DNA of 32,000 bases from Clostridia bacterium (GTDB lineage: Bacteria; Bacillota; Clostridia; Oscillospirales; Acutalibacteraceae): NCBI GenBank assembly GCA_017624735.1, contig JAGAMK010000003.1, positions 28,802 to 60,801 of the forward strand. The letters run 5' to 3'. A model generated the notes under the pieces. That model did no database searches, had not been told where the DNA came from, and worked only from the letters and a program-made list of their open reading frames with translations. This document shows positions 2,768-29,010 of this stretch, in pieces. Within the stretch, counting starts at the first letter, position 1. The number at the start of each line of letters is the position of its first letter. A program made the position numbers and the translations under genes.

Positions 2768-2851
2768 TGGTGCGAGAGACGGGACTTGAACCCGTACGGG
2801 ATTACCACACGCCCCTCAAACGTGCGCGTCTGCCGATTCCGCCACTCTCGC
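2768..2851 (-). tRNA. tRNA-Leu, anticodon GAG (class II, long variable arm), CCA encoded
   Basis: Reverse complement GCGAGAGTGGCGGAATCGGCAGACGCGCACGTTTGAGGGGCGTGTGGTAATCCCGTACGGGTTCAAGTCCCGTCTCTCGCACCA. Acceptor GCGAGAG/CTCTCGC, Leu-type D arm GTGGCGGAAT..GCAGACGCG, anticodon stem CACGT/GCGTG with loop TTGAGGG, 12-nt variable arm, T arm ACGGG-TTCAAGT-CCCGT. Confidence 0.9.
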
Positions 2852-4701: not shown

Positions 4702-4786
4702 GTCATTCTGAGCGTAGCGAAGAATCTCTCCCAAAATAGTATGTCAACTAACAGAGATTCTTCGTCGTTACACTCCTCAGAATGAC
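4702..4786. repeat. 85-nt hairpin repeat, copy E1 (GTCATTCTGAG...GAAGAATCTC // GAGATTCTTCG...CTCAGAATGAC), 33 nt upstream of the glgA start
   Basis: Near-identical arms at 14112-14195 and 28925-29010. Followed at 4790-4814 by a GCAGGC-GTAGAA-GCCTGC hairpin ending in CTCTAC. Confidence 0.85.
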
Positions 4787-11658: not shown

Positions 11659-13412
11659 TATAACGCACCTCCCATCACGTCAAAATCGTCACTGCCCTTT
11701 TGCTGGGAGTTATAAATATCCTGATAAATCTCGTTTCTCAAAAGCAATTCTTCGTGATTGCCTATATCGTTAATTCCACCCTCATCAAGAATGATAATCT
11801 TGTCACAATCAGAAACGGATGAAATTCTTTGTGCAATAATAATCTTTGTTGTGTCAGGAATACATTCACGAAGTCCTTTACGGATTTTTGAATCAGTAAA
11901 TGTGTCAACTGCACTTGTGGAGTCATCAAGAATAAGAATTCTAGGCTTTTTAAGAATTGCACGTGCAATACAAAGTCGTTGTTTCTGTCCGCCTGAAACA
12001 TTTACGCCACCCTGACCTAAATCAGTATTATATCCGTCGGGGAATGAGGATACAAACGAGTGTGCATCAGCAATTTTACAAGCCTCAATGAGTTCTTCGT
12101 CAGTTGCATTTTTGTCACCCCAACGAAGATTATCTGCGATTGTACCCGAGAAAAGAACATTCTTCTGAAGCACCATACTTACTGCATCACGAAGATTGAA
12201 AATCTTATAGTCTTTTACATTTACACCGCCAACAAGTAATTCACCATCGGTAACATCATAAAGACGAGGAATTAACTGCACAAGGCTTGTTTTGGCAGAA
12301 CCTGTTGCGCCGATAATACCAACCATTTCGCCACTTTCGATTTTGAAGGTAGCATTGTTGATTACATTATTCTGTGCCCCTGCATATTTAAAGGAAACAT
12401 TCTTAAATTCGATTGAGCCGTCTTTAACCTCTGTAACTGTTGCATTATCATCGTTTATATCTGGATTTTCTTCCATAACCTCTAAAATACGCTTTGCGCT
12501 TGCCTGTGACATAAAGAACTGAGCAATAAGCATAACAATCATAAGGAAGTGAATTAAAATCTGCATTATATAAGTGAAGATTGCAGAGAAATCTCCAATG
12601 AGCAAGGTTTCCTGTGTAATTTCTCTTGCTGCAATATAGAGGATTGCAAGGATTGTGCCATACATAATAATCGTGAATGTCGGCATACCCATAATCATGA
12701 GCTTTTCAGCATGTAATGCAGCATTCATAAGGTCGTCGTTTGCCTTTTTGAATTTTTTCTTTTCAAAATCTGAACGGACAAAAGCCTTTACAACTCTTAT
12801 GTTGGTGAGATTTTCTTGAATTGAAGCATTGAAGGAGTCAAACATGGTGAACATCTTCTTAAATCGTTTCAATGTAATTGGTGCAAAAATTATAAGAATA
12901 ATTGCAATAAGTGGGAGTGCCACTGTAAAAGGCATAGCCACCTGACGACTTTTTGTGATTGTGATTGCCAATGCTACAACAAACATAACAGGTGCACGGA
13001 ACAACATTCTAATCATCATAACAAATGTATTCTGCACAGAGTTTACGTCAGTTGTGATTCGTGTAATCAAGGATGCCGTTGAAAAATGGTCAATGTTGGA
13101 GAAGGAAAACTTCTGGATTTTACCCATAATTTCTTCTCTTAAACTTGCACCAAATCCCATACCTGCAACCGCAGCCATTCTCGCCGCCATAGCACCACAG
13201 AAAAGGGAGCCGATTGCATACAAGAGCATTTTTAGTCCAAGACGGAGAATAACATTCATACTATCTTCTGTCATTCCACTCTGCACAAGGTTTACAATGT
13301 CCGCCATAACAAGTGGAATCAAAAGTTCTAGCACAACCTCACCAATCATTAAAACTGGCGAGAGAATTGTAGGAACAATATATTTCTTCGCATGTCTTAA
13401 AAGTTTAAACAT
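11658..13412 (-). CDS. ABC exporter, fused permease/ATPase subunit (heterodimer partner 1)
   Basis: TM domain + NBD with GATGSAKTS, VSGGQKQR, LILDDSTS. Overlaps the marR-like stop by 8 nt. Confidence 0.9.
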   Translation of the reverse strand: MFKLLRHAKKYIVPTILSPVLMIGEVVLELLIPLVMADIVNLVQSGMTEDSMNVILRLGLKMLLYAIGSLFCGAMAARMAAVAGMGFGASLREEIMGKIQKFSFSNIDHFSTASLITRITTDVNSVQNTFVMMIRMLFRAPVMFVVALAITITKSRQVAMPFTVALPLIAIILIIFAPITLKRFKKMFTMFDSFNASIQENLTNIRVVKAFVRSDFEKKKFKKANDDLMNAALHAEKLMIMGMPTFTIIMYGTILAILYIAAREITQETLLIGDFSAIFTYIMQILIHFLMIVMLIAQFFMSQASAKRILEVMEENPDINDDNATVTEVKDGSIEFKNVSFKYAGAQNNVINNATFKIESGEMVGIIGATGSAKTSLVQLIPRLYDVTDGELLVGGVNVKDYKIFNLRDAVSMVLQKNVLFSGTIADNLRWGDKNATDEELIEACKIADAHSFVSSFPDGYNTDLGQGGVNVSGGQKQRLCIARAILKKPRILILDDSTSAVDTFTDSKIRKGLRECIPDTTKIIIAQRISSVSDCDKIIILDEGGINDIGNHEELLLRNEIYQDIYNSQQKGSDDFDVMGGAL

Positions 13413-13854
13413 TGTTATCCTCCTTTCTAAAAGTTGTCAGATTATCATTCATTCGTTTAACGAAGGATGACAAAAGTTCAATCTCATCCTCCGTAAAACC
13501 TTGATAAGTTACATTGTCAACATTAAGGAAATAGTCATCAGCAAATTTCTTAATTTCCTTACCTTTTTTTGTAAGTTTTAATTTATGGCATCGTGAATCG
13601 TTTTTATTTTCAAAACGGATGATAAGACCCGATTCTTCCATCTTTTTTAGTGACTTTGCAACGGCAGGTTGACTAATATTAAAATAATCTGCAATTTCTT
13701 TCTGTGTAGCATCTTCGTTGTCACTCAGATATTTAAGTATTGGTGGCTGTCCGCAGCCTAATCCGTATTCACGGAATTTCCCATCTATTATTTCACGATG
13801 CACGATATGATATTTTTTAAATTCAGCATCTAATTTTTTTACCTTTGAAATCAA
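13405..13854 (-). CDS. MarR-family transcriptional regulator
   Basis: Winged-HTH core QKEIADYFNISQPAVAKSLKKMEESGLIIRFENKNDSRCHKLKLTKKG. The track ORF starts at TTG 13881. I prefer the in-frame TTG at 13854 because AAGGA lies 9 nt upstream, and no SD precedes 13881. Confidence 0.85.
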   Translation of the reverse strand: MISKVKKLDAEFKKYHIVHREIIDGKFREYGLGCGQPPILKYLSDNEDATQKEIADYFNISQPAVAKSLKKMEESGLIIRFENKNDSRCHKLKLTKKGKEIKKFADDYFLNVDNVTYQGFTEDEIELLSSFVKRMNDNLTTFRKEDNNV

Positions 13855-13883
13855 CTTTTCACATCCTTTTGATACAATCAAAA

Positions 13884-13952
13884 ATATATAACCAAGTTAT
13901 TTAATAACCGGTTATATATTTTATATTATATACCTTTTTTTACCTGTGTCAA
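13884..13952 (-). promoter_or_regulatory. marR-ABC operon promoter plus palindromic operator
   Basis: Minus strand TTGACA (13952-13947), 16 nt, TATAAT (13930-13925). Just downstream lies the inverted repeat ATATATAACC (13884-13893) / GGTTATATAT (13910-13919), including the perfect 12-mer ATAACCGGTTAT (13904-13915). This is the classic autoregulated MarR layout. Confidence 0.65.
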
Positions 13953-14006
13953 CACCGTAAAATCGGGTCAAATGTGAACAATTTGTAAACAATTTGCCCT
14001 TTTTTC

Positions 14007-14038
14007 AAAAACGTCCCGGAAATCCTGGGACGTTTTTG
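14007..14038. terminator. orphan bidirectional terminator-like hairpin between the marR promoter and the phage module
   Basis: AAAA-ACGTCCC-GGAAATCCT-GGGACGT-TTTT. There is no convergent gene on either side. Confidence 0.5.
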
Positions 14039-14111: not shown

Positions 14112-14195
14112 GTCATTCTGAGGAACGTAGTGACGAAGAATCTCTGATAATTTTATTGCTTTTTAGGAGAGATTCTTCGCTTTGCTCAGAATGAC
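14112..14195. repeat. 85-nt hairpin repeat, copy E2, 32 nt upstream of the terS start
   Basis: GTCATTCTGAGGAACGTAGTGACGAAGAATCTCT...GAGAGATTCTTCGCTTTGCTCAGAATGAC, the same family and the same gene-relative orientation as 4702-4786 and 28925-29010. Confidence 0.85.
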
Positions 14196-14227: not shown

Positions 14228-14722
14228 ATGAACACAAAGAAACTTACAAAGAAAGAAACGGATTTTTGTCGTATGTATGTACGACTCCGTAATCCACGGG
14301 AGGCAGCCGTGAGAGCAGGTTTTACCACTCTGCCCGAATGTCGTGCTGTAAGCCTTTTATCCAAAAAGAATATCTGCAAAAAGATTCAGGAGCTTGAAAA
14401 AGAAGCCCTTGCAGACGAAGCGCTTATTTCTGCAGGACTTCAACGCCTTGCTTTCGGCTCCGTTTCCGATGCAGTTAAACTTATTCTTTCCGCTGACAAA
14501 AACACTTCCCCCGACATTGATAGTCTTGACCTTTTTAATGTGTCAGAAATCAAATTTACAAGCGGAAAGGGTATGGAGATTAAATTCTTTGACAGATTAA
14601 AAGCTTTGGAACGACTTTCTCTCATTTCTCAAAACGGAAATGATTTGGGTGCATTGTCATTCTACGAAGCGCTTGAAAGAAGTGCTAGTAAAACGGAGAG
14701 TGAAGATAATGTCACAAATTAA
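14228..14722 (+). CDS. terS: terminase small subunit (Terminase_2 / P27-like)
   Basis: N-terminal LTKKETDFCRMYVRLRNPREAAVRAGF HTH and C-terminal DRLKALERLS, both characteristic of this family. SD AAGGAGG. Confidence 0.85.
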   Translation: MNTKKLTKKETDFCRMYVRLRNPREAAVRAGFTTLPECRAVSLLSKKNICKKIQELEKEALADEALISAGLQRLAFGSVSDAVKLILSADKNTSPDIDSLDLFNVSEIKFTSGKGMEIKFFDRLKALERLSLISQNGNDLGALSFYEALERSASKTESEDNVTN

Positions 14723-15971
14723 CTTTCATTCCTTTTCACCTAAACAGATGACAGTGCTTAACTGGTGGTGCGAAAGCAGTAAGCATAAAACCTATGACGC
14801 AATTATCTGTGACGGTGCTGTCCGAAGCGGAAAAACTCTTTGTATGTCACTTTCGTTCATTCTTTGGTCCTTCTATCGGTTTTCAGACTGTTCCTTTGCA
14901 ATCTGTGGTAAGACAATCACATCTCTTAGGCGAAACGTAATCACTCCCCTGTTACCGTTGCTTAAAGATTTAGGTTTTACCGTAAAGGAGACAAAGTCAG
15001 CAAATGTAATAATTATCAGTAAAGGAAAAATCAGTAACAGATTTTATCTTTTCGGTGGCAGGGATGAGTCTTCGGCATCCCTTATTCAAGGTATCACCCT
15101 TTGCGGTGTGTTGCTTGATGAGGTTGCTTTGATGCCCCGTTCGTTTGTTGAACAGGCTTTGGCAAGATGCTCCGTAAACGGCTCAAAGCTTTGGTTCAAT
15201 TGCAATCCCGAAAATCCACGCCATTGGTTTTACACCGAGTGGAAAAAAAAAGCAGACTCTAAAAATTGCCTCTATCTTCATTTCTTGATGGACGACAATC
15301 CATCCCTTTCGCAAAAAATAAAAAACAGATACAAGAGTCTTTATTCAGGGGCATTTTATGAACGCTTTGTGCTTGGCAAATGGGTTGCTGTTGATGGTCT
15401 TGTGTATCCTTTTTTCAGCGAGAAAGAACACGTGACCGACACACTCCCCGAAAACTGTAATAAGTATTACATTTCCTGTGACTATGGAACAGTTAACCCT
15501 GCCTCATTCGGACTTTGGGGTGAAAAAGACGGAATATGGTATCGCCTTCGGGAATTCTATCACGATTCAAAGCAGAAAGGCTTTCAGATGACCGACAAGG
15601 AATATTACGACAAATTAGTAACCCTTGCAGACGGAAAAAGAATTGAAGCGGTGATAGTTGACCCATCTGCTGCATCCTTTATGGAATGTATTCGTAGAGA
15701 GGGCAAATTCCGTGTGATTCCTGCAAAGAACAATGTGGCAGACGGTATCCGAAAGGTTTCCGAAAAACTGAAAACCAAAAAAATTATTATCGGCAGTTCC
15801 TGTACGGACACATTGAGAGAATTCTCCCAATACCGTTGGGACTCAGGCAGTGTTAACGACACTCCAAGAAAAGAGTATGACCACGCTATGGACGATATTC
15901 GTTATTTCGTGGCTACAGCTCTTTCATCTACGGACAATTCATTCTTCGCATTATCCGTAGAGAGAAATTAA
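14709..15971 (+). CDS. terL: terminase large subunit (PBSX-like family)
   Basis: MSQINFHSFSPKQMTVLNWW..., Walker A DGAVRSGKT, Walker B-like GVLLDEV, C-terminal nuclease-type region (DHAMDDIRY). Start set at ATG 14709 (GGAGAG 8 nt upstream), overlapping terS by 14 nt. The track start at 14640 is in the wrong context. Confidence 0.9.
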   Translation: MSQINFHSFSPKQMTVLNWWCESSKHKTYDAIICDGAVRSGKTLCMSLSFILWSFYRFSDCSFAICGKTITSLRRNVITPLLPLLKDLGFTVKETKSANVIIISKGKISNRFYLFGGRDESSASLIQGITLCGVLLDEVALMPRSFVEQALARCSVNGSKLWFNCNPENPRHWFYTEWKKKADSKNCLYLHFLMDDNPSLSQKIKNRYKSLYSGAFYERFVLGKWVAVDGLVYPFFSEKEHVTDTLPENCNKYYISCDYGTVNPASFGLWGEKDGIWYRLREFYHDSKQKGFQMTDKEYYDKLVTLADGKRIEAVIVDPSAASFMECIRREGKFRVIPAKNNVADGIRKVSEKLKTKKIIIGSSCTDTLREFSQYRWDSGSVNDTPRKEYDHAMDDIRYFVATALSSTDNSFFALSVERN

Positions 15972-15985
15972 AAGGAGGTAATTAC

Positions 15986-17116
15986 TTGTCCATATTTGAC
16001 AAAGTGGGTAAAAGAAAAGTCTGCGCTACCGCACCACAGACATCTTATTCCCAACCCTTTGAGAGTTTGTGCAACTTCTTCCCTTCAAACATCAATCACC
16101 CCGACCTTTATCGCAGTCTTCGTGAGGCAATTCCCATCATTGATACAGCAATTTATAAACTTGTCCGTCTTACAGGTGGTTTTTCTGTAGTGTCAAACAA
16201 CGGTAAAAATCAGAAACAACTTGATGACTTTGTTCGTAATGTAAATGTTGGTGGTGCAGGAAAAGGGCTTCAACAGTTTATTGACACTTATTTTGAGCAA
16301 CTACTCACTTTCGGCACATCTGTTGGTGAAATTGTGACGGATTGTGATGGGATTAACTCACTTTACAATGTCCCGATTGAAAATATTTCACTTAAACGAA
16401 ACCCTAAAAACTTCAATGAAGTACTGATTTGTCGTCCCGACTCCCTTTCAGGTACACCTATTAAATATCAGGATTTGGTAATGTATTCCACACTCAATCC
16501 CGAGGCAGGCAGCATCACGGGCAACTCAATTTTGAAAGGACTTCCTTTTGTAGCATCCATCCTTTTAAAGATTTACAATTCAATGGGACAGAATTGGGAG
16601 AGAGCAGGGAATCTTCGATATGCCGTTACATATAATCCCGGCTCGGATATGCTTGACCGTGCTTATGCCAAAGAGCGAGCAACACAGATTGCAACCGAAT
16701 GGTCAAACGCTATGAATGGCAGTAGTGTCAAGGATTTTGTTGCTGTTGGAGATGTTCAGATTAAGGTTATCGGTGCTGACGGACAGATTTTAGACAGTGA
16801 AATCCCTGTTAAACAGATGCTTGAACAAATTATTGCAAAGCTCTCCATTCCACCATTTATGCTTGGTATTTCGTGGAGTACAACGGAGCGAATGTCATCA
16901 CAGCAGGCAGACGCTCTCACAACAGAATTGTCTGCATACAGACGAATTCTCACACCGGTTATTGAAAAGATTTGTTCGCTTTTTCTTCGTTTCTGTGGCA
17001 ACAGCGACGGAGTTGAGGTAGTGTGGGATGAAATTACTTTGCAAGATGCAGTTGAACAGGCTCGTGCAGACCTTTATTCTGCTCAGGCAAAGGCTATTGG
17101 AGGTGATAAGAATTGA
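15986..17116 (+). CDS. phage portal protein
   Basis: Position directly after terL; 376 aa; TTG start with AGGAGG 7 nt upstream; portal-like region IPPFMLGISWSTTERMSSQQADALTTELSAYRRIL. Confidence 0.7.
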   Translation: MSIFDKVGKRKVCATAPQTSYSQPFESLCNFFPSNINHPDLYRSLREAIPIIDTAIYKLVRLTGGFSVVSNNGKNQKQLDDFVRNVNVGGAGKGLQQFIDTYFEQLLTFGTSVGEIVTDCDGINSLYNVPIENISLKRNPKNFNEVLICRPDSLSGTPIKYQDLVMYSTLNPEAGSITGNSILKGLPFVASILLKIYNSMGQNWERAGNLRYAVTYNPGSDMLDRAYAKERATQIATEWSNAMNGSSVKDFVAVGDVQIKVIGADGQILDSEIPVKQMLEQIIAKLSIPPFMLGISWSTTERMSSQQADALTTELSAYRRILTPVIEKICSLFLRFCGNSDGVEVVWDEITLQDAVEQARADLYSAQAKAIGGDKN

Positions 17117-18066
17117 TTAAAAAATCTTATACTACAACAAAGGATGTAGGAGTTCCAACTGACGAAGATATGCTTTTAATCAACGAGCATACTCTTAAAA
17201 AGTTAGAAAAGGAAGATGTTTTCACATTCAGTGTCAACCTCTGTGACAACGACATTGACCGTGATTTTGAGCGATTTGATGAGGACTCTCTTAAAACTCT
17301 TGAAAAACTTTTCGTGGGCAAAACGGGAATTTTAAATCACAGTATGAAAAGTGAAGACCAGAGTTGTCGCACATACAAAACGCAAGTAATTTGCGACAAT
17401 ACAAGGAAAACTGTTGACGGCAGGGCTTACACCTATCTCAAAGCGTGGTGCTACACAGTACGTAGCGAGAAAAATGCGTCACTTATCAAGGATATCGAAA
17501 GTGGCATCAAAAAGGAGGTCAGCGTCAGTTGTGCATCCGAAAGCAGAATTTGCTCAATCTGCGGTGAGAATCGTTGTAATCATATTGCGGGACGAAAATA
17601 CAATGGTGACATTTGCTACAAGACGATTTCAGACATTACCGATGCTTATGAATGGTCCTTTGTGGCAGTTCCTGCACAGAGAAATGCAGGTGTTACCAAG
17701 TCATTTAAAAAGGAGAAATCTATGGAAAACATCTTAAAATCCATTAGGGAAGAAAAAATCCTTACTCTCAATGAGCAAGACCTTAATAAACTTTCAAACT
17801 ATATGGATTCCCTTAAAGCAAAGAGTCTTGACGGTGAAAAATACCGCAATTCTCTTATTCAAAATGCAAAGAAGAATTTCGCCTTGACCATTCCAACTCT
17901 TAAAGAAGAATGTGTTGACGAAATACTCAAAAATCTTTCATCGGAAACACTTGAAAATCTTTGCTCATCACTTACAAAACAGGCTAACAAGGTTATTCCG
18001 CCTGTCAGCCAGCTTTATACAGAAGAAAACCATAACAACAACTCAAATAATGAGTTCAAATTTTAA
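17113..18066 (+). CDS. prohead protease (HK97 gp4 / S78-like) fused to a C-terminal coiled-coil scaffold-like domain
   Basis: Motifs GILNHSM (His), KKEVSVSC (Ser region) and AYEWSFVAVPAQRNAGV match the usual L-x-E-V-S-x-V-x-x-PA pattern. The C-terminal ~110 aa are helical and charged. 4-nt overlap with the portal stop. Confidence 0.6.
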   Translation: MIKKSYTTTKDVGVPTDEDMLLINEHTLKKLEKEDVFTFSVNLCDNDIDRDFERFDEDSLKTLEKLFVGKTGILNHSMKSEDQSCRTYKTQVICDNTRKTVDGRAYTYLKAWCYTVRSEKNASLIKDIESGIKKEVSVSCASESRICSICGENRCNHIAGRKYNGDICYKTISDITDAYEWSFVAVPAQRNAGVTKSFKKEKSMENILKSIREEKILTLNEQDLNKLSNYMDSLKAKSLDGEKYRNSLIQNAKKNFALTIPTLKEECVDEILKNLSSETLENLCSSLTKQANKVIPPVSQLYTEENHNNNSNNEFKF

Positions 18067-18080
18067 GGAGGATTTAATTT

Positions 18081-19085
18081 ATGGCTAATTTTGAAACAAT
18101 CAAACTCGACAAAGGACTTTATGGCACAAGAAAGGGTTTTCTTTCAGAGCTTGAAAGTATTGACCCAAGTGAAAACTACAAGGGCACAAGCCTTGAAGGT
18201 CTTGACGCATTTGAACGTCAGTTAAAGCGATTCGACATCAAACTCAAGGGTGAAGGCAGTTCAACAGTTGACAAATTCTTTGCAACAACTGACTCTGCCG
18301 TGCTTTTCCCTGAATATGTTTCTCGTGCAGTCCGCCAGGGAATTGAAGAAGGCAAGCACCTTGATTCAATCATTGCAACAAAGACAAACATTGAGGGTCT
18401 TGATTACAGAACAATAACATCAATCCCAACGGCTGACGAAAAGGAACTCAAAGAGGTTGCAGAGGGTGCACAGATTCCTGAAACAGTTATCCACACGCAA
18501 GAAAATCTTGTTACACTCAAAAAACGTGGCAGAATGCTTGTGGCATCTTACGAGGCAATCCGTTTTCAGCGTCTTGACCTTTTCACAGTAACACTCCGTC
18601 AGATTGGTGCGTATATTGCTCGTTCACAGTTCAAGGATGCAGTTAATGTTCTTATTGATGGTGACGGCAACAACAACCCTGCAGAGGAAATTGCTCCTGA
18701 AACATCGGGTTCAATCACTTATGCAGACTTAATCAAGCTTTGGAACAGTTTTTCACCTTATGAGATGAACACACTTATTGCATCTCCTGATGTTACAGCA
18801 AAGCTTCTCGCTATGCCTGAATTCCGTGATGCTCCTGCAGGGCTTAATTTCCACGGTAATGGTTCAATGATTACTCCACTCGGCGCAAAACTTATTAAGT
18901 CCAACGACCTTAGTAAGAAACTGGTTGCACTTGATAAGAATTATGCCCTTGAAATGGTAACTGCTGGTGGTGTACAGACAGACTTTGACCGTCTTATTGA
19001 CCGTCAACTCGAACGTGCAGCCATCACACAGATTTCTGGCTTTGCAAAAATCTTTGCAGGCTCTGCAAAAGTTATGAATGGTTAA
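18081..19085 (+). CDS. major capsid protein (HK97 fold)
   Basis: Position after protease/scaffold; 334 aa; strong SD AAGGAGG; capsid-like segments LFPEYVSRAVRQG, MLVASYEAIRFQRLD, ITYADLIKLWNSFSPYEMNTLIASPDV. Confidence 0.8.
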   Translation: MANFETIKLDKGLYGTRKGFLSELESIDPSENYKGTSLEGLDAFERQLKRFDIKLKGEGSSTVDKFFATTDSAVLFPEYVSRAVRQGIEEGKHLDSIIATKTNIEGLDYRTITSIPTADEKELKEVAEGAQIPETVIHTQENLVTLKKRGRMLVASYEAIRFQRLDLFTVTLRQIGAYIARSQFKDAVNVLIDGDGNNNPAEEIAPETSGSITYADLIKLWNSFSPYEMNTLIASPDVTAKLLAMPEFRDAPAGLNFHGNGSMITPLGAKLIKSNDLSKKLVALDKNYALEMVTAGGVQTDFDRLIDRQLERAAITQISGFAKIFAGSAKVMNG

Positions 19086-19100
19086 TTTTAGGTGACTGCC

Positions 19101-19469
19101 ATGATAAATGTATGGTCAGTTTGCCAAGTGCTTGAAGATACAGGTGCACTCACCTCAGAAGAAACAAAAAAAGCTATGCCATTCTGCCTATCGGCTTGTA
19201 GTCAGTTGTCTAAAAGACTTAAAAATGTGAAAAATGAAGATGAACCTGCTGTAATCAATGCCTGCGCAGGTATTGCCCTTTATAATTACTCGCTTTTACA
19301 ATGCTCAAAAAGTGAAGATTTCTCGTCCTTTAAAGCCGGTGACATCACCATAAGCAAAACTAAAAACAGCACCTATGAAAGTGCCGTTAAATTCCGTGAC
19401 GAGGCACTCCTTCTGGCATCAGAATACTTAACAGACGTGGATTTTGTGTTTAAGGCGGTGGAAGTATGA
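19101..19469 (+). CDS. putative head-tail connector (gp6-like)
   Basis: Size and position immediately after the MCP. ATG 19101 preferred (GGTGA 5 nt upstream) over the track GTG at 19092. Confidence 0.5.
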   Translation: MINVWSVCQVLEDTGALTSEETKKAMPFCLSACSQLSKRLKNVKNEDEPAVINACAGIALYNYSLLQCSKSEDFSSFKAGDITISKTKNSTYESAVKFRDEALLLASEYLTDVDFVFKAVEV

Positions 19470-19807
19470 ATTTCAGTTCCCTTTTTTCTGCCCACGGTAG
19501 CACAATTTATTTGAGTGGTGCAGACGGTTGGAAAAGTCCTGTCTTCAAGGCTTTTCTTCAACCTTTAAGATACAAAAACAAACTCTATCAGCAGGGCGAA
19601 CACACACCCATAGGCATAAACAAAAATGATGTTTATCTCTATTTAGGTCCTGCTGACCACGACCTTACAAAACTCAATAGTTTCCACAGAATTCACGATA
19701 GCGACGAAAACAAATATATGATTGACCGAGCAGAAAAGATTATTTTTGATAACAAAACTCTTTACATCTGGGCAATCATCAGAAAAACAACGGAGGGTAG
19801 TTTATGA
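19466..19807 (+). CDS. putative head-closure / head-tail joining protein
   Basis: 113 aa, 4-nt overlap with the previous gene. The C-terminal pattern NKYMIDRAEKIIFDNKTLYIWAI resembles head-tail joining proteins. Confidence 0.5.
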   Translation: MNFSSLFSAHGSTIYLSGADGWKSPVFKAFLQPLRYKNKLYQQGEHTPIGINKNDVYLYLGPADHDLTKLNSFHRIHDSDENKYMIDRAEKIIFDNKTLYIWAIIRKTTEGSL

Positions 19808-20235
19808 CCGTAAATGCAAACTTTGTAAATAATGTTTATTCAAGTTTAAAACAAGAAACTATGTTTAATGACTTAACCTTCGTTATCGCTCACGAAAACG
19901 AAATCAAACCAACACCTTTGGTGAAACCCATTGTTGCTCTTTCGCCAAAAGGTTGTGTAATCGGAGATAAGTTGACCAAGACAAATGATAATGGTGAAAT
20001 TATTGTAACAAAAAAACGTGAAGTAAAATCAACTGTCAGCATTGATATTTACCTGCCCTACTCTATGGGGGGTATTGAGGGTCACAGAATCTTTGACCAA
20101 ATAGCAACGCACTTGCTGTTTACCCAAAACCTTACAATCAGTGGTGCAACCTGCTCGGAAGCAGATTACGACGCATCTTGTCAAGCAATAGTTTTAAAAT
20201 CTTCTTTCGTTTTTACCAATGTAGTTGAGAGTTAA
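19804..20235 (+). CDS. putative neck / tail-completion-type protein; last gene of the module
   Basis: 143 aa, 4-nt overlap, SD GGAGGG. The assignment rests on synteny only. Confidence 0.35.
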   Translation: MTVNANFVNNVYSSLKQETMFNDLTFVIAHENEIKPTPLVKPIVALSPKGCVIGDKLTKTNDNGEIIVTKKREVKSTVSIDIYLPYSMGGIEGHRIFDQIATHLLFTQNLTISGATCSEADYDASCQAIVLKSSFVFTNVVES

Positions 20236-20260
20236 GTATGTGCGGGTAATACTGGCTTCT

Positions 20261-20326
20261 CCCTGAGGAAAAGCTGTCACGAAGTAACTGATGAGGTGTT
20301 GTAGGGACAGGTCTCCGTGCCTGTCC
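20261..20326. repeat. degenerate GC-rich palindromic repeat modules
   Basis: CTGAGGAA-N5-GTCACGAAG resembles the distal arm of the 85-nt hairpin family. The GGACAGG-TCTCCGTG-CCTGTCC hairpin is preceded by GTAG (reverse complement = hairpin + CCCTAC). Confidence 0.55.
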
Positions 20327-20338
20327 GAAAATAAGGCA

Positions 20339-20664
20339 ACAAAAAAATCCCACCGAGGGAATCAAGGGTGTCTCACATAGGAATTTAATAGGTTTTAATC
20401 CTATTCTTTCCGTTAATACTTCACGAAAAAACCCCACAAGGCATTAGCCTTGTGGGGTTTTTGTCATTTTGTCTAAACGAAAATTATATGGATTAAAACT
20501 GCCTTGCACCTTAAACCTTATAAGTTTGGATACAGAGCAAGGCATAAATGTGAAGGAACCCTGACGGGTTTCAAGCATTTTAACGATGCTCTGTGCCAAA
20601 ATCATTGGTTTAAGGCTGTTAAATCCCTATGCGAGACACCCTTTTCGGTGGGTAATTTTTTTGT
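20339..20664. other. ~325-bp non-coding element bounded by ~60-bp imperfect inverted repeats. Candidates: MITE, structured RNA, or invertible segment.
   Basis: 20339-20401 is the imperfect reverse complement of 20607-20664. The interior contains a bidirectional terminator and a ~140-nt nested hairpin (20490-20626). There is no SD-preceded ORF. Confidence 0.6.
20426..20462. terminator. bidirectional intrinsic terminator shared by the phage module (+) and the MFS gene (-)
   Basis: A6-CCCCACAAGG-CATTAG-CCTTGTGGGG-T5: a 10-bp GC-rich stem. Confidence 0.85.
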
Positions 20665-28924: not shown

Positions 28925-29010
28925 GTCATTCTGGGCGTCAGCAAAGAATCTTTTTGTAGGCAACATAATTATCAATAGAGATTCTTCGTCACTTCGTTCC
29001 TCAGAATGAC
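28925..29010. repeat. 85-nt hairpin repeat, copy E3, 23 nt upstream of the yycJ-like start
   Basis: Reverse complement reads GTCATTCTGAGGAACGAAGTGACGAAGAATCTCT...AAAAGATTCTTTGCTGACGCCCAGAATGAC, the same gene-relative orientation as E1 and E2. Confidence 0.85.

Follow-up and report, generated by a model that had tools for sequence, protein, structure and literature searches.

We describe here a phage-like head and DNA-packaging module carried on the chromosome of a Clostridia bacterium of the Acutalibacteraceae (assembly GCA_017624735.1, contig JAGAMK010000003.1, positions 28,802 to 60,801; this whole stretch of 32,000 nucleotides is called the window below). The module lies at 14228-20235 of the window on the plus strand and consists of eight co-directional open reading frames (ORFs), in the order terS, terL, portal, ORF4, MCP (major capsid protein), N1, N2 and N3. 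All eight are intact and free of internal stops, and the junctions between consecutive ORFs measure, in order, -14, +14, -4, +14, +6, -4 and -4 nt, so that the compact layout reported by an earlier, sequence-only reading of the same DNA, with four overlaps and no gap above 15 nt, is indeed what we find. The same reading had credited every gene with a strong Shine-Dalgarno sequence. This holds for terS, portal, ORF4, MCP and N3, which are preceded by AAGGAGG or GGAGG, whereas the sites of terL, N1 and N2 are weaker.

Profile searches bear out the identities proposed earlier for both terminase subunits, the portal and the capsid protein. terS (14228-14722, 164 aa) matches small terminase subunit models (PF03592, E 1.2e-12; phrog_51, 5e-12), and since its match to Terminase_2 begins at profile position 1, the N-terminal part of the family domain is retained. 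terL (14709-15971, 420 aa) is a large terminase subunit of the PBSX family, scoring well over the cutoff of the "PBSX family" model TIGR01547 (1.6e-52; phrog_2, 1.4e-52), and its translation shows both a Walker A (GAVRSGKT) and a Walker B (LLDE) motif. The portal protein (15986-17116, 376 aa) is recognised by phrog_30703 (2e-127), with a further match to PF04860 (3e-9) that falls short of Pfam's own cutoff. The major capsid protein (18081-19085, 334 aa) is of the HK97 type (PF25209, 7e-19; phrog_3922, 3e-93; a weak match to TIGR01554) and matches HK97-type models only, with no match to an N4-gp56 model. An encapsulin, that is, an HK97-fold shell with cargo and neither portal nor terminase, does not describe this locus, where the portal and both terminase subunits are present. 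With these proteins and the protease-scaffold protein described below, the module encodes all that is needed to build and fill a capsid.

ORF4 (17113-18066, 317 residues) has a single profile match, to an unnamed PHROG (phrog_16951, 6e-88), and the Pfam XkdF model gave no match to it. It can be divided into a protease-like domain (approximately residues 1-196), in which His76 and Ser137 are invariant in an alignment of 38 homologues, and a helical, poorly conserved, scaffold-like C-terminal half (approximately residues 200-317). An AlphaFold (AF2) model of the protein (predicted local distance difference test score, pLDDT, 73.7) found its best match among the predicted viral structures of BFVD in an entry named 'Prohead serine protease' (E 1e-19); next came further entries for prohead proteases and XkdF. 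The fusion of a prohead serine-protease-like and a scaffold-like part, suggested earlier, is therefore supported at the level of predicted structure. A separate feature of the N-terminal domain is a cluster of Cys and His residues (C147, C150, C155, H157 and C168; window 17551-17616), invariant across the 38 homologues down to 36% identity, which is zinc-ribbon-like and inserted into the predicted prohead-protease domain.

Three small genes close the module. N1 (122-125 aa) starts at a GTG at 19092 or an ATG at 19101, the latter being the start taken by gene callers, and ends at 19469, while N2 (113 aa) spans 19466-19807; judged by position, they would be a head-tail adaptor and a head-closure or stopper protein, respectively. 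Homology is weak for N1, which found no match in Pfam or among PDB sequences, and the head-tail adaptor model phrog_541 weakly matched 7 of the 55 pooled N1/N2 family members. An hhalign comparison of N2 with SPP1 gp16 recovered a short motif only, which was non-significant (E 0.003, probability 10%). Likewise, profiles of ORF4, N1, N2 and N3 gave nothing significant against PDB sequences or, using hhalign, against SPP1 gp15, gp16, gp16.1 and gp17. For N3 (19804-20235, 143 aa), the AF2 model (pLDDT 90.8; predicted template modelling score, pTM, 0.83) was compared with PDB structures using Foldseek and matched neck chains of Pa193 and E217, lambda gpU, T5 p142 and collar chains of pyocin R2 and diffocin, with E values of 8e-6 to 2e-3 and TM scores up to 0.60. 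The last protein of the module is thus predicted to have the tail-terminator (gpU, 'gateway' or collar) fold of proteins that normally cap the head-proximal end of a tail. The description of all three as neck-sized proteins therefore stands, by position, for N1 and N2, and gives way to a tail-terminator fold for the third. Among the 120 N3 homologues listed, lengths run from 129 to 146 aa and are nearly all exactly 143. A search of N3 against 50,697 phage records returned a single match, the misfiled record MT835508 discussed below; no sequenced phage therefore has a close relative of this protein, and no candidate helper can be named.

The surroundings of the module are entirely those of a host chromosome. 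All other ORFs of at least 100 aa in the window are host genes: glgA/D/C/B, two ABC transporter genes and marR on the left, and genes for an MFS protein, DUF2804, HtrA (htrA), a two-component pair (HK/RR), rlmH, an MBL-fold protein and an EPSP-synthase-family protein on the right. The earlier statement that the 32 kb hold no recombinase, replication, regulation, tail or lysis ORF is thus upheld. Extending the analysis to positions 17990-63421 of the 80980-nt metagenomic scaffold (about 45 kb of about 81 kb), where an integrase or replication block might have lain just beyond the window boundary, brought only host genes, including the sporulation genes spoIVA and sipL. No int, alpA, rep or primase gene occurs in the window or in these 45 kb, and the module has no regulatory or integration gene in cis. 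There is no direct repeat of 10 nt or more common to both module flanks, i.e. no att-like repeat, and GC content is uniform over the window and the same as that of the host, with no sign of an island. A tRNA gene at 2771-2851 (minus strand), with no phage-like gene adjoining, is the sole Rfam match in the window, and Rfam recorded no known RNA element near the module. The locus is hence a chromosomal, phage-like structural cluster without replication, integration or lysogeny genes, as is expected of a gene transfer agent (GTA).

We compared the locus across relatives for synteny and selection, as had been proposed earlier, and found it at the same site, intact and under purifying selection. 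In L003, L004-L006 and L009-L016, at capsid identities of 78-95%, the divergent MarR-ABC-ABC operon is again the neighbour of the same eight intact genes, and the outer flanks may differ among these loci. The layout also holds at 53-68% protein identity (L008, L020, L023 and L058), and the host clade with the same locus comprises species of Candidatus Fimenecus (Acutalibacteraceae). One of these loci, L008, is the 46.7-kb GenBank record MT835508.1, which is labelled "Bacteriophage sp." and is a fragment of bacterial chromosome carrying the module; it reads Rnf/ApbE, ABC-ABC-MarR, the eight genes and oleate hydratase, with an MgtC gene also present, and its portal and capsid proteins are 53% and 68% identical to those of the window, respectively. 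Other 'Bacteriophage sp.' records from human faecal viromes also hold the module (MT838993, MT835769, MT835952 and MT836604).

All eight genes are intact in every examined genome that covers them. The ratio of nonsynonymous to synonymous substitution rates (dN/dS), calculated by the Nei-Gojobori method against the least saturated partners (dS 0.4-1.0), was 0.04-0.25 across the eight genes (MCP 0.04-0.06, terL and portal 0.06, terS 0.06-0.10, N1 0.13-0.15, N2 0.15-0.16 and N3 0.21-0.25), compared with 0.03-0.15 in most flanking host genes; more distant pairs gave agreeing values, but are near saturation. The absence of frame disruptions, from which it had been concluded that the module is not decaying, thus extends to its relatives. 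Furthermore, identity in the flank and in the module falls in step, an ABC identity of 94% going with 94% for terL, 83-85% with 81-83%, and 63% with 66%, as a host locus passed on by vertical descent would show. Such inheritance, and purifying selection over a host clade, are both expected of a GTA. Evolution is faster in N3 and in the adjacent MarR than in the remaining genes. The MarR protein (window 13405-13881) is 51% identical to its counterparts in L009 and L012, while the adjacent ABC proteins are 91-94% and TerS 93-95% identical, a divergence that points to allele replacement or to very fast evolution of a regulator that shares the module's intergenic region. Between the window and strain L092 of the same species, a recombination breakpoint falls within the module (window 18780-19470, L092 15441-16127): the two strains are 99-100% identical in N2, N3 and the right flank (dS 0.03-0.08), whereas the C-terminus of the capsid protein and N1 show dS of 0.5-0.66.

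The module belongs to a large family. Its capsid protein has more than 8000 close database relatives, falling into 1218 clusters at 50% identity, and the capsid family is present in at least 595 GTDB species genomes. Carriers include Candidatus Fimenecus, other Acutalibacteraceae, metagenome-assembled genomes labelled Oscillospiraceae or Ruminococcaceae, and the cultured Acetanaerobacterium elongatum, whose strain CGMCC 1.5012 carries the full form of the cluster, sheath and baseplate included (L067). The family also occurs on at least 543 IMG/VR contigs, where the predicted 'proviruses' examined are only about 10-13 kb. We drew gene maps of about 160 loci and a neighbour-joining tree of 163 capsid proteins; the clusters are at most about 13 kb at the loci examined and fall into four architectures. 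In form D, the head genes and neck proteins are followed by a tail sheath (PF04984/PF17482), a gene of tube size, a pair of small genes and a block encoding the baseplate. Form C lacks the sheath and is otherwise the same; its baseplate block comprises a LysM protein, a hub, Mu gp45-like, gp25-like, Baseplate_J (2e-54) and gpI-like proteins, and its last gene is small and weakly resembles Clostridium phage tail fibres. Form B has the head genes, N1, N2 and a protein of about 280 aa, after which host genes begin, and form A is head only, as in the window. In the form-B protein, the N-terminal half is homologous to N3 and the C-terminal half to the fibre-like gene with which forms C and D end, so that it looks like the scar of a deletion of all genes between N3 and the fibre-like gene.

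On the capsid tree, the four forms group coherently. Form A makes up essentially a single clade, within which capsid identity goes down to about 61-68%; the few loci classed as form A that lie elsewhere on the tree may be misclassified or may represent independent losses. In 23 species the neighbouring host gene is mgtE, for form B and form C alike, and no integrase was present at any inspected locus of the family. Judged from these comparisons, the whole family probably behaves as a chromosomally fixed, GTA-like element, of which the window holds the most reduced grade. Since related Oscillospirales clusters keep the sheath and/or an XkdP-U-like baseplate, it follows that the tail-less form came about when the tail block was lost in cis, and that it was kept thereafter. 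Genes that follow some relatives on the same strand (c41-c45) were considered as hidden tail or lysis genes and turned out to be host genes (DHDPS, methyltransferase, TPK and HAD). In one locus (L071), the gene that comes after a long-form cluster, on its strand (17615-20464), encodes a 949-aa CHAP-domain protein matching endolysin families, the only lysis-type gene seen adjoining any family member. In most members outside Fimenecus, the protease-scaffold and capsid genes are separated by an additional gene, of about 113 aa (cluster c7; L044 9648-9983 and equivalents), which is absent from the window and has no match in Pfam or NCBIfam. Our literature searches, whose coverage excluded subscription journals, found no published description of this family.

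The module shares a control region with the divergent marR operon, and this region might act on the module as well. It (13872-13952) contains a minus-strand sigma-70 promoter for marR with a perfect sequence (TTGACA-16-TATAAT, 13952-13925), as well as MarR-operator-like palindromes of the TTAACCGGTTAA type. As noted before, there is no convincing promoter ahead of terS: we found no convincing plus-strand sigma-70 promoter. Between the marR promoter and terS lies a terminator-like hairpin (14006-14038, plus strand) that the sequence-only reading had overlooked. The core arms of this hairpin are perfectly complementary over 12 nt, RNA folding lengthens the stem to 14 bp (-26.6 kcal/mol, z -4.8), and an A-run upstream together with a U-run downstream means that it could work in both directions. 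It is kept across the Fimenecus clade, with stem and loop changes in the sister species, and a CGTCCC..GGGACG motif occupies the same place in L001, L003-L006, L009-L012 and L017. The hairpin may serve as an insulator, or as an attenuator that must be read through for the module to be expressed, and expression may come from read-through or antitermination or from a promoter that is not of the sigma-70 type.

The sequence-only reading had instead let an 84-nt hairpin (14112-14195) stand in for the missing promoter. This element is a copy of a dispersed intergenic repeat with the core GTCATTCTGAGGAACG.AGTGACGAAGAATCTC, found three times in the 32 kb (4754-4786, minus; 14112-14144, plus; 28978-29010, minus), where none is expected by chance, and it is missing from the same marR-terS spacer in the sister species. 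A role as a module-specific regulatory element is therefore ruled out; the repeat looks like a repetitive extragenic palindromic (REP) or miniature inverted-repeat transposable element (MITE) belonging to this genome. At the other end of the module, N3 and the convergent MFS gene have a terminator hairpin in common (20349-20658), its loop split by a MITE-like insertion of about 285 nt (window 20364-20643) with 35-nt terminal inverted repeats (20364-20398 and 20609-20643) and its own hairpin and T-run (20427-20462). The near-identical strain L092, which has an uninterrupted hairpin, and the sister species both lack this insertion, and the ancestral state downstream of N3 is thus best read as a bidirectional terminator shared with the MFS gene.

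Given its intactness, synteny and purifying selection in many species, the module is very probably a domesticated, fixed chromosomal part of Candidatus Fimenecus and related Acutalibacteraceae, and the domestication implied by the first of three earlier options, a domesticated head-only unit, is strongly supported. As to its role, we lean, with distinctly less assurance, towards a domesticated GTA-like particle system of PBSX-type ancestry, of which the module would be the head and neck half and whose tails and lysis functions would be supplied in trans. With a gene set so complete and conserved, it is reasonable to infer that the module builds DNA-filled capsids. Under this GTA-like interpretation, the operon would be switched on by some signal, possibly via read-through of the conserved hairpin upstream of terS; procapsids would form, the terminase would pack host DNA by headful, and the adaptor, stopper and terminator proteins would seal the portal vertex. 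Delivery of the DNA would need a tail or adsorption device from elsewhere, either an unlinked host locus, as in the two-operon GTA of Faecalibacterium prausnitzii (FpGTA), or a co-resident phage, and release would need lysis functions encoded elsewhere. That a terminator-fold N3 has been retained, and that it is fused to a fibre-like domain in the sister clade, suggests that an interface for a tail or for adsorption is still of importance.

Several points weigh against the GTA-like interpretation. The roughly 45 kb of scaffold read contain no tail, holin or endolysin gene. N1 and N2 are without significant homology to characterised adaptor or stopper proteins. The ORF4 model found no match among PDB structures, and its assignment as a protease leans on predicted structures of viral proteins that are annotated and uncharacterised. 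Because terS keeps the N-terminal part of its family domain, packaging may begin at a specific site and not randomly. Finally, purifying selection proves that the module has some function, and not a GTA-like function specifically.

By ancestry, the closest known systems are the PBSX/skin-type defective prophages of Bacillus, which have contractile tails and package host DNA: the module shares with them a PBSX-family terL (TIGR01547) and a protease resembling the XkdF type (BFVD structure matches), and in its fuller relatives the resemblance extends to the sheath and to an XkdP-Q-R-S-T-U-like block (LysM, hub, gp45-like, gp25-like, Baseplate_J and gpI-like). Neither is mobile, and both are maintained by the host. 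PBSX, of about 28 kb, comes with regulators of its own, a complete contractile tail (sheath, tube, tape measure and XkdP-U baseplate), fibres and a lysis cassette, whereas the family described here does not exceed about 13 kb and the form in the window is without any tail, regulator or lysis gene, sheath and baseplate being found only in distant family members.

The closest functional analogue is FpGTA (Borodovich et al., Nat Commun 2026, PMC12946183), which has a head and packaging operon with terS, terL, portal and MCP, and a second operon about 125 kb away that holds other structural (tail) and lysis genes; its capsids measure about 40 nm and contain about 8.5-9 kb of host DNA, with no tails visible by electron microscopy (PMC12946183). 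Both are chromosomally fixed head operons of gut Oscillospirales, conserved genus-wide and without replication or integration genes. However, FpGTA combines an N4-gp56-family capsid protein with a Prp-type protease and a podovirus tail nozzle (PMC12946183), whereas the window encodes a capsid of the HK97/PF25209 type, an XkdF-like serine protease-scaffold and a PBSX-family terL, its relatives being of the myovirus type, and FpGTA operon I keeps some tail parts whereas the module ends at the terminator protein. FpGTA is therefore placed in a different phage lineage, and homology between the module and FpGTA operon I was rejected on these differences in capsid, protease and nozzle, the two being set apart by described composition and not by direct sequence comparison. 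The RcGTA-type GTAs of Alphaproteobacteria are clusters of about 15 kb that combine head and tail genes, lack genes for replication or integration and pass down vertically under purifying selection, with dispersed accessory loci (PMC12946183). This description fits the full-length relatives of the module (about 13 kb), but the phage ancestry is unrelated, and the RcGTA tail stays in the main cluster.

The phage-inducible chromosomal islands that form capsids (cf-PICIs) offer a different parallel. These are mobile, self-packaging islands of about 15 kb defined by int, alpA and rep or primase genes at their left, and their capsids take on tails that a different element produces (Alqurainy et al. 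2023, bioRxiv 10.1101/2022.09.08.507074). The comparison, already drawn by the sequence-only reading, holds for the head gene set, since the module likewise has terS, terL, portal, protease, capsid and head-tail connectors and lacks tail genes. It holds as an analogy only: the module is 6 kb, fixed and vertically inherited, has no int, alpA, rep or att sites, lies at the same site in all species examined and has no flank repeats of 10 nt or more. A tentative proposal that builds on this analogy is a 'tail-stealing GTA', a host-owned, immobile, capsid-forming element for which Candidatus Fimenecus and its relatives would have discarded their own tail genes and kept the head, packaging and neck cassette; we regard it as possible and on balance improbable. 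In such a system, N3 would dock heads filled with host DNA onto the tails of co-resident or co-infecting phages, or onto extracellular tails, as cf-PICI capsids do. If true, host genes would spread by borrowed tails, with a host range set by the phage at hand, and the terminator-fibre fusion of the sister clade would be an alternative, minimal solution to adsorption.

Of similarly doubtful standing is the explanation that sealed, DNA-filled, tail-less capsids are themselves the end product, used for something other than gene transfer of the injection type. They could be protected extracellular DNA for competent relatives, a store of DNA or nucleotides released when mother cells or stationary-phase cells lyse, or matrix or decoy particles. 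The tail block has been lost in cis, yet the head genes are under purifying selection over a deep clade, and the gene set is closed by a terminator-fold protein of strictly conserved length. In keeping with such an end point, FpGTA preparations contain capsids without visible tails (PMC12946183), and the host has the sporulation genes for SpoIVA and SipL, so programmed lysis is available. However, there is no known mechanism by which sealed, tail-less HK97-type capsids hand over DNA, retention of a tail terminator suggests a surviving tube or tail partner, and the fusion of the sister-clade terminator to a fibre-like domain points to adsorption still being important.

We consider it unlikely that the module serves in anti-phage defence through interference with assembly. 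The terminase and capsid would then divert packaging into small host capsids and lower phage yield as PICIs do, in an element that is itself immobile, and the terminator protein may also cap or hijack the tails of the invader. The genes are those of the cf-PICI capsid module, and cf-PICIs steal nothing but tails (bioRxiv 10.1101/2022.09.08.507074). The fold of N3 is one that caps tails, and N3 and MarR evolve faster, as expected of phage-facing proteins. However, the dN/dS of N3 is only 0.2-0.25, which is purifying and not diversifying, the locus has no sensor, repressor or phage-inducible regulator, and judging by the identities of the flanking genes, which are housekeeping and transport genes, it lies in no defence island (no dedicated defence-library search was made).

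The remaining two explanations, which correspond to the other two earlier options, fare worse. A minimal, helper-dependent mobile satellite, i.e. a cf-PICI-like element stripped of int, alpA and rep, is very improbable: its head-only content resembles that of cf-PICIs, and the recombination breakpoint between the window and L092 shows exchange inside the module between strains of one species, but the locus has neither integrase, replication or regulatory gene nor att-like repeats, its GC is that of the host, and it keeps the same chromosomal site with co-diverging flanks across species down to about 53% portal identity. Least credible of all is a functionless, decaying prophage remnant or a recent, strain-specific deletion derivative, for which the missing tail, lysis, lysogeny and replication genes and the existence of relatives with fuller tails might speak, and which the conservation data refute, since all genes are intact with dN/dS of 0.04-0.25, N3 homologues are essentially of one length, and the tail-less state is old and defines a clade spanning about 61-68% capsid identity.

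To conclude, we present a family of GTA-like elements of which the window holds the head-only grade. One consequence concerns the databases, as the GenBank "Bacteriophage sp." records and hundreds of 'proviruses' of about 10 kb in IMG/VR are host loci that inflate counts of the gut Clostridia virome. The four nested architectures form a natural deletion series from a contractile-tailed particle to a bare head, in which the head-only and fusion forms are under purifying selection, and they raise the question of what use a phage head has after the tail genes have left the locus. The family also bears on the DNA found in virus-like particles (VLPs), to which Oscillospirales (Ruminococcaceae, Oscillospiraceae, Acutalibacteraceae and Butyricicoccaceae) over-contribute bacterial DNA, often short, in discrete sizes of 4-9 kb and with uniform genome coverage, the genes responsible being known for Faecalibacterium only (PMC12946183; bioRxiv 10.64898/2026.07.08.737213). 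GTA-like packaging of 4-9 kb fragments in other Oscillospirales has been reported with its gene cluster unidentified (PMC12946183), and the uniform VLP coverage of Oscillospirales genomes is described as unexplained (bioRxiv 10.64898/2026.07.08.737213). With clusters of at most 13 kb, fixed in the chromosomes of at least 595 species, the family described here is a testable candidate for part of this packaging.

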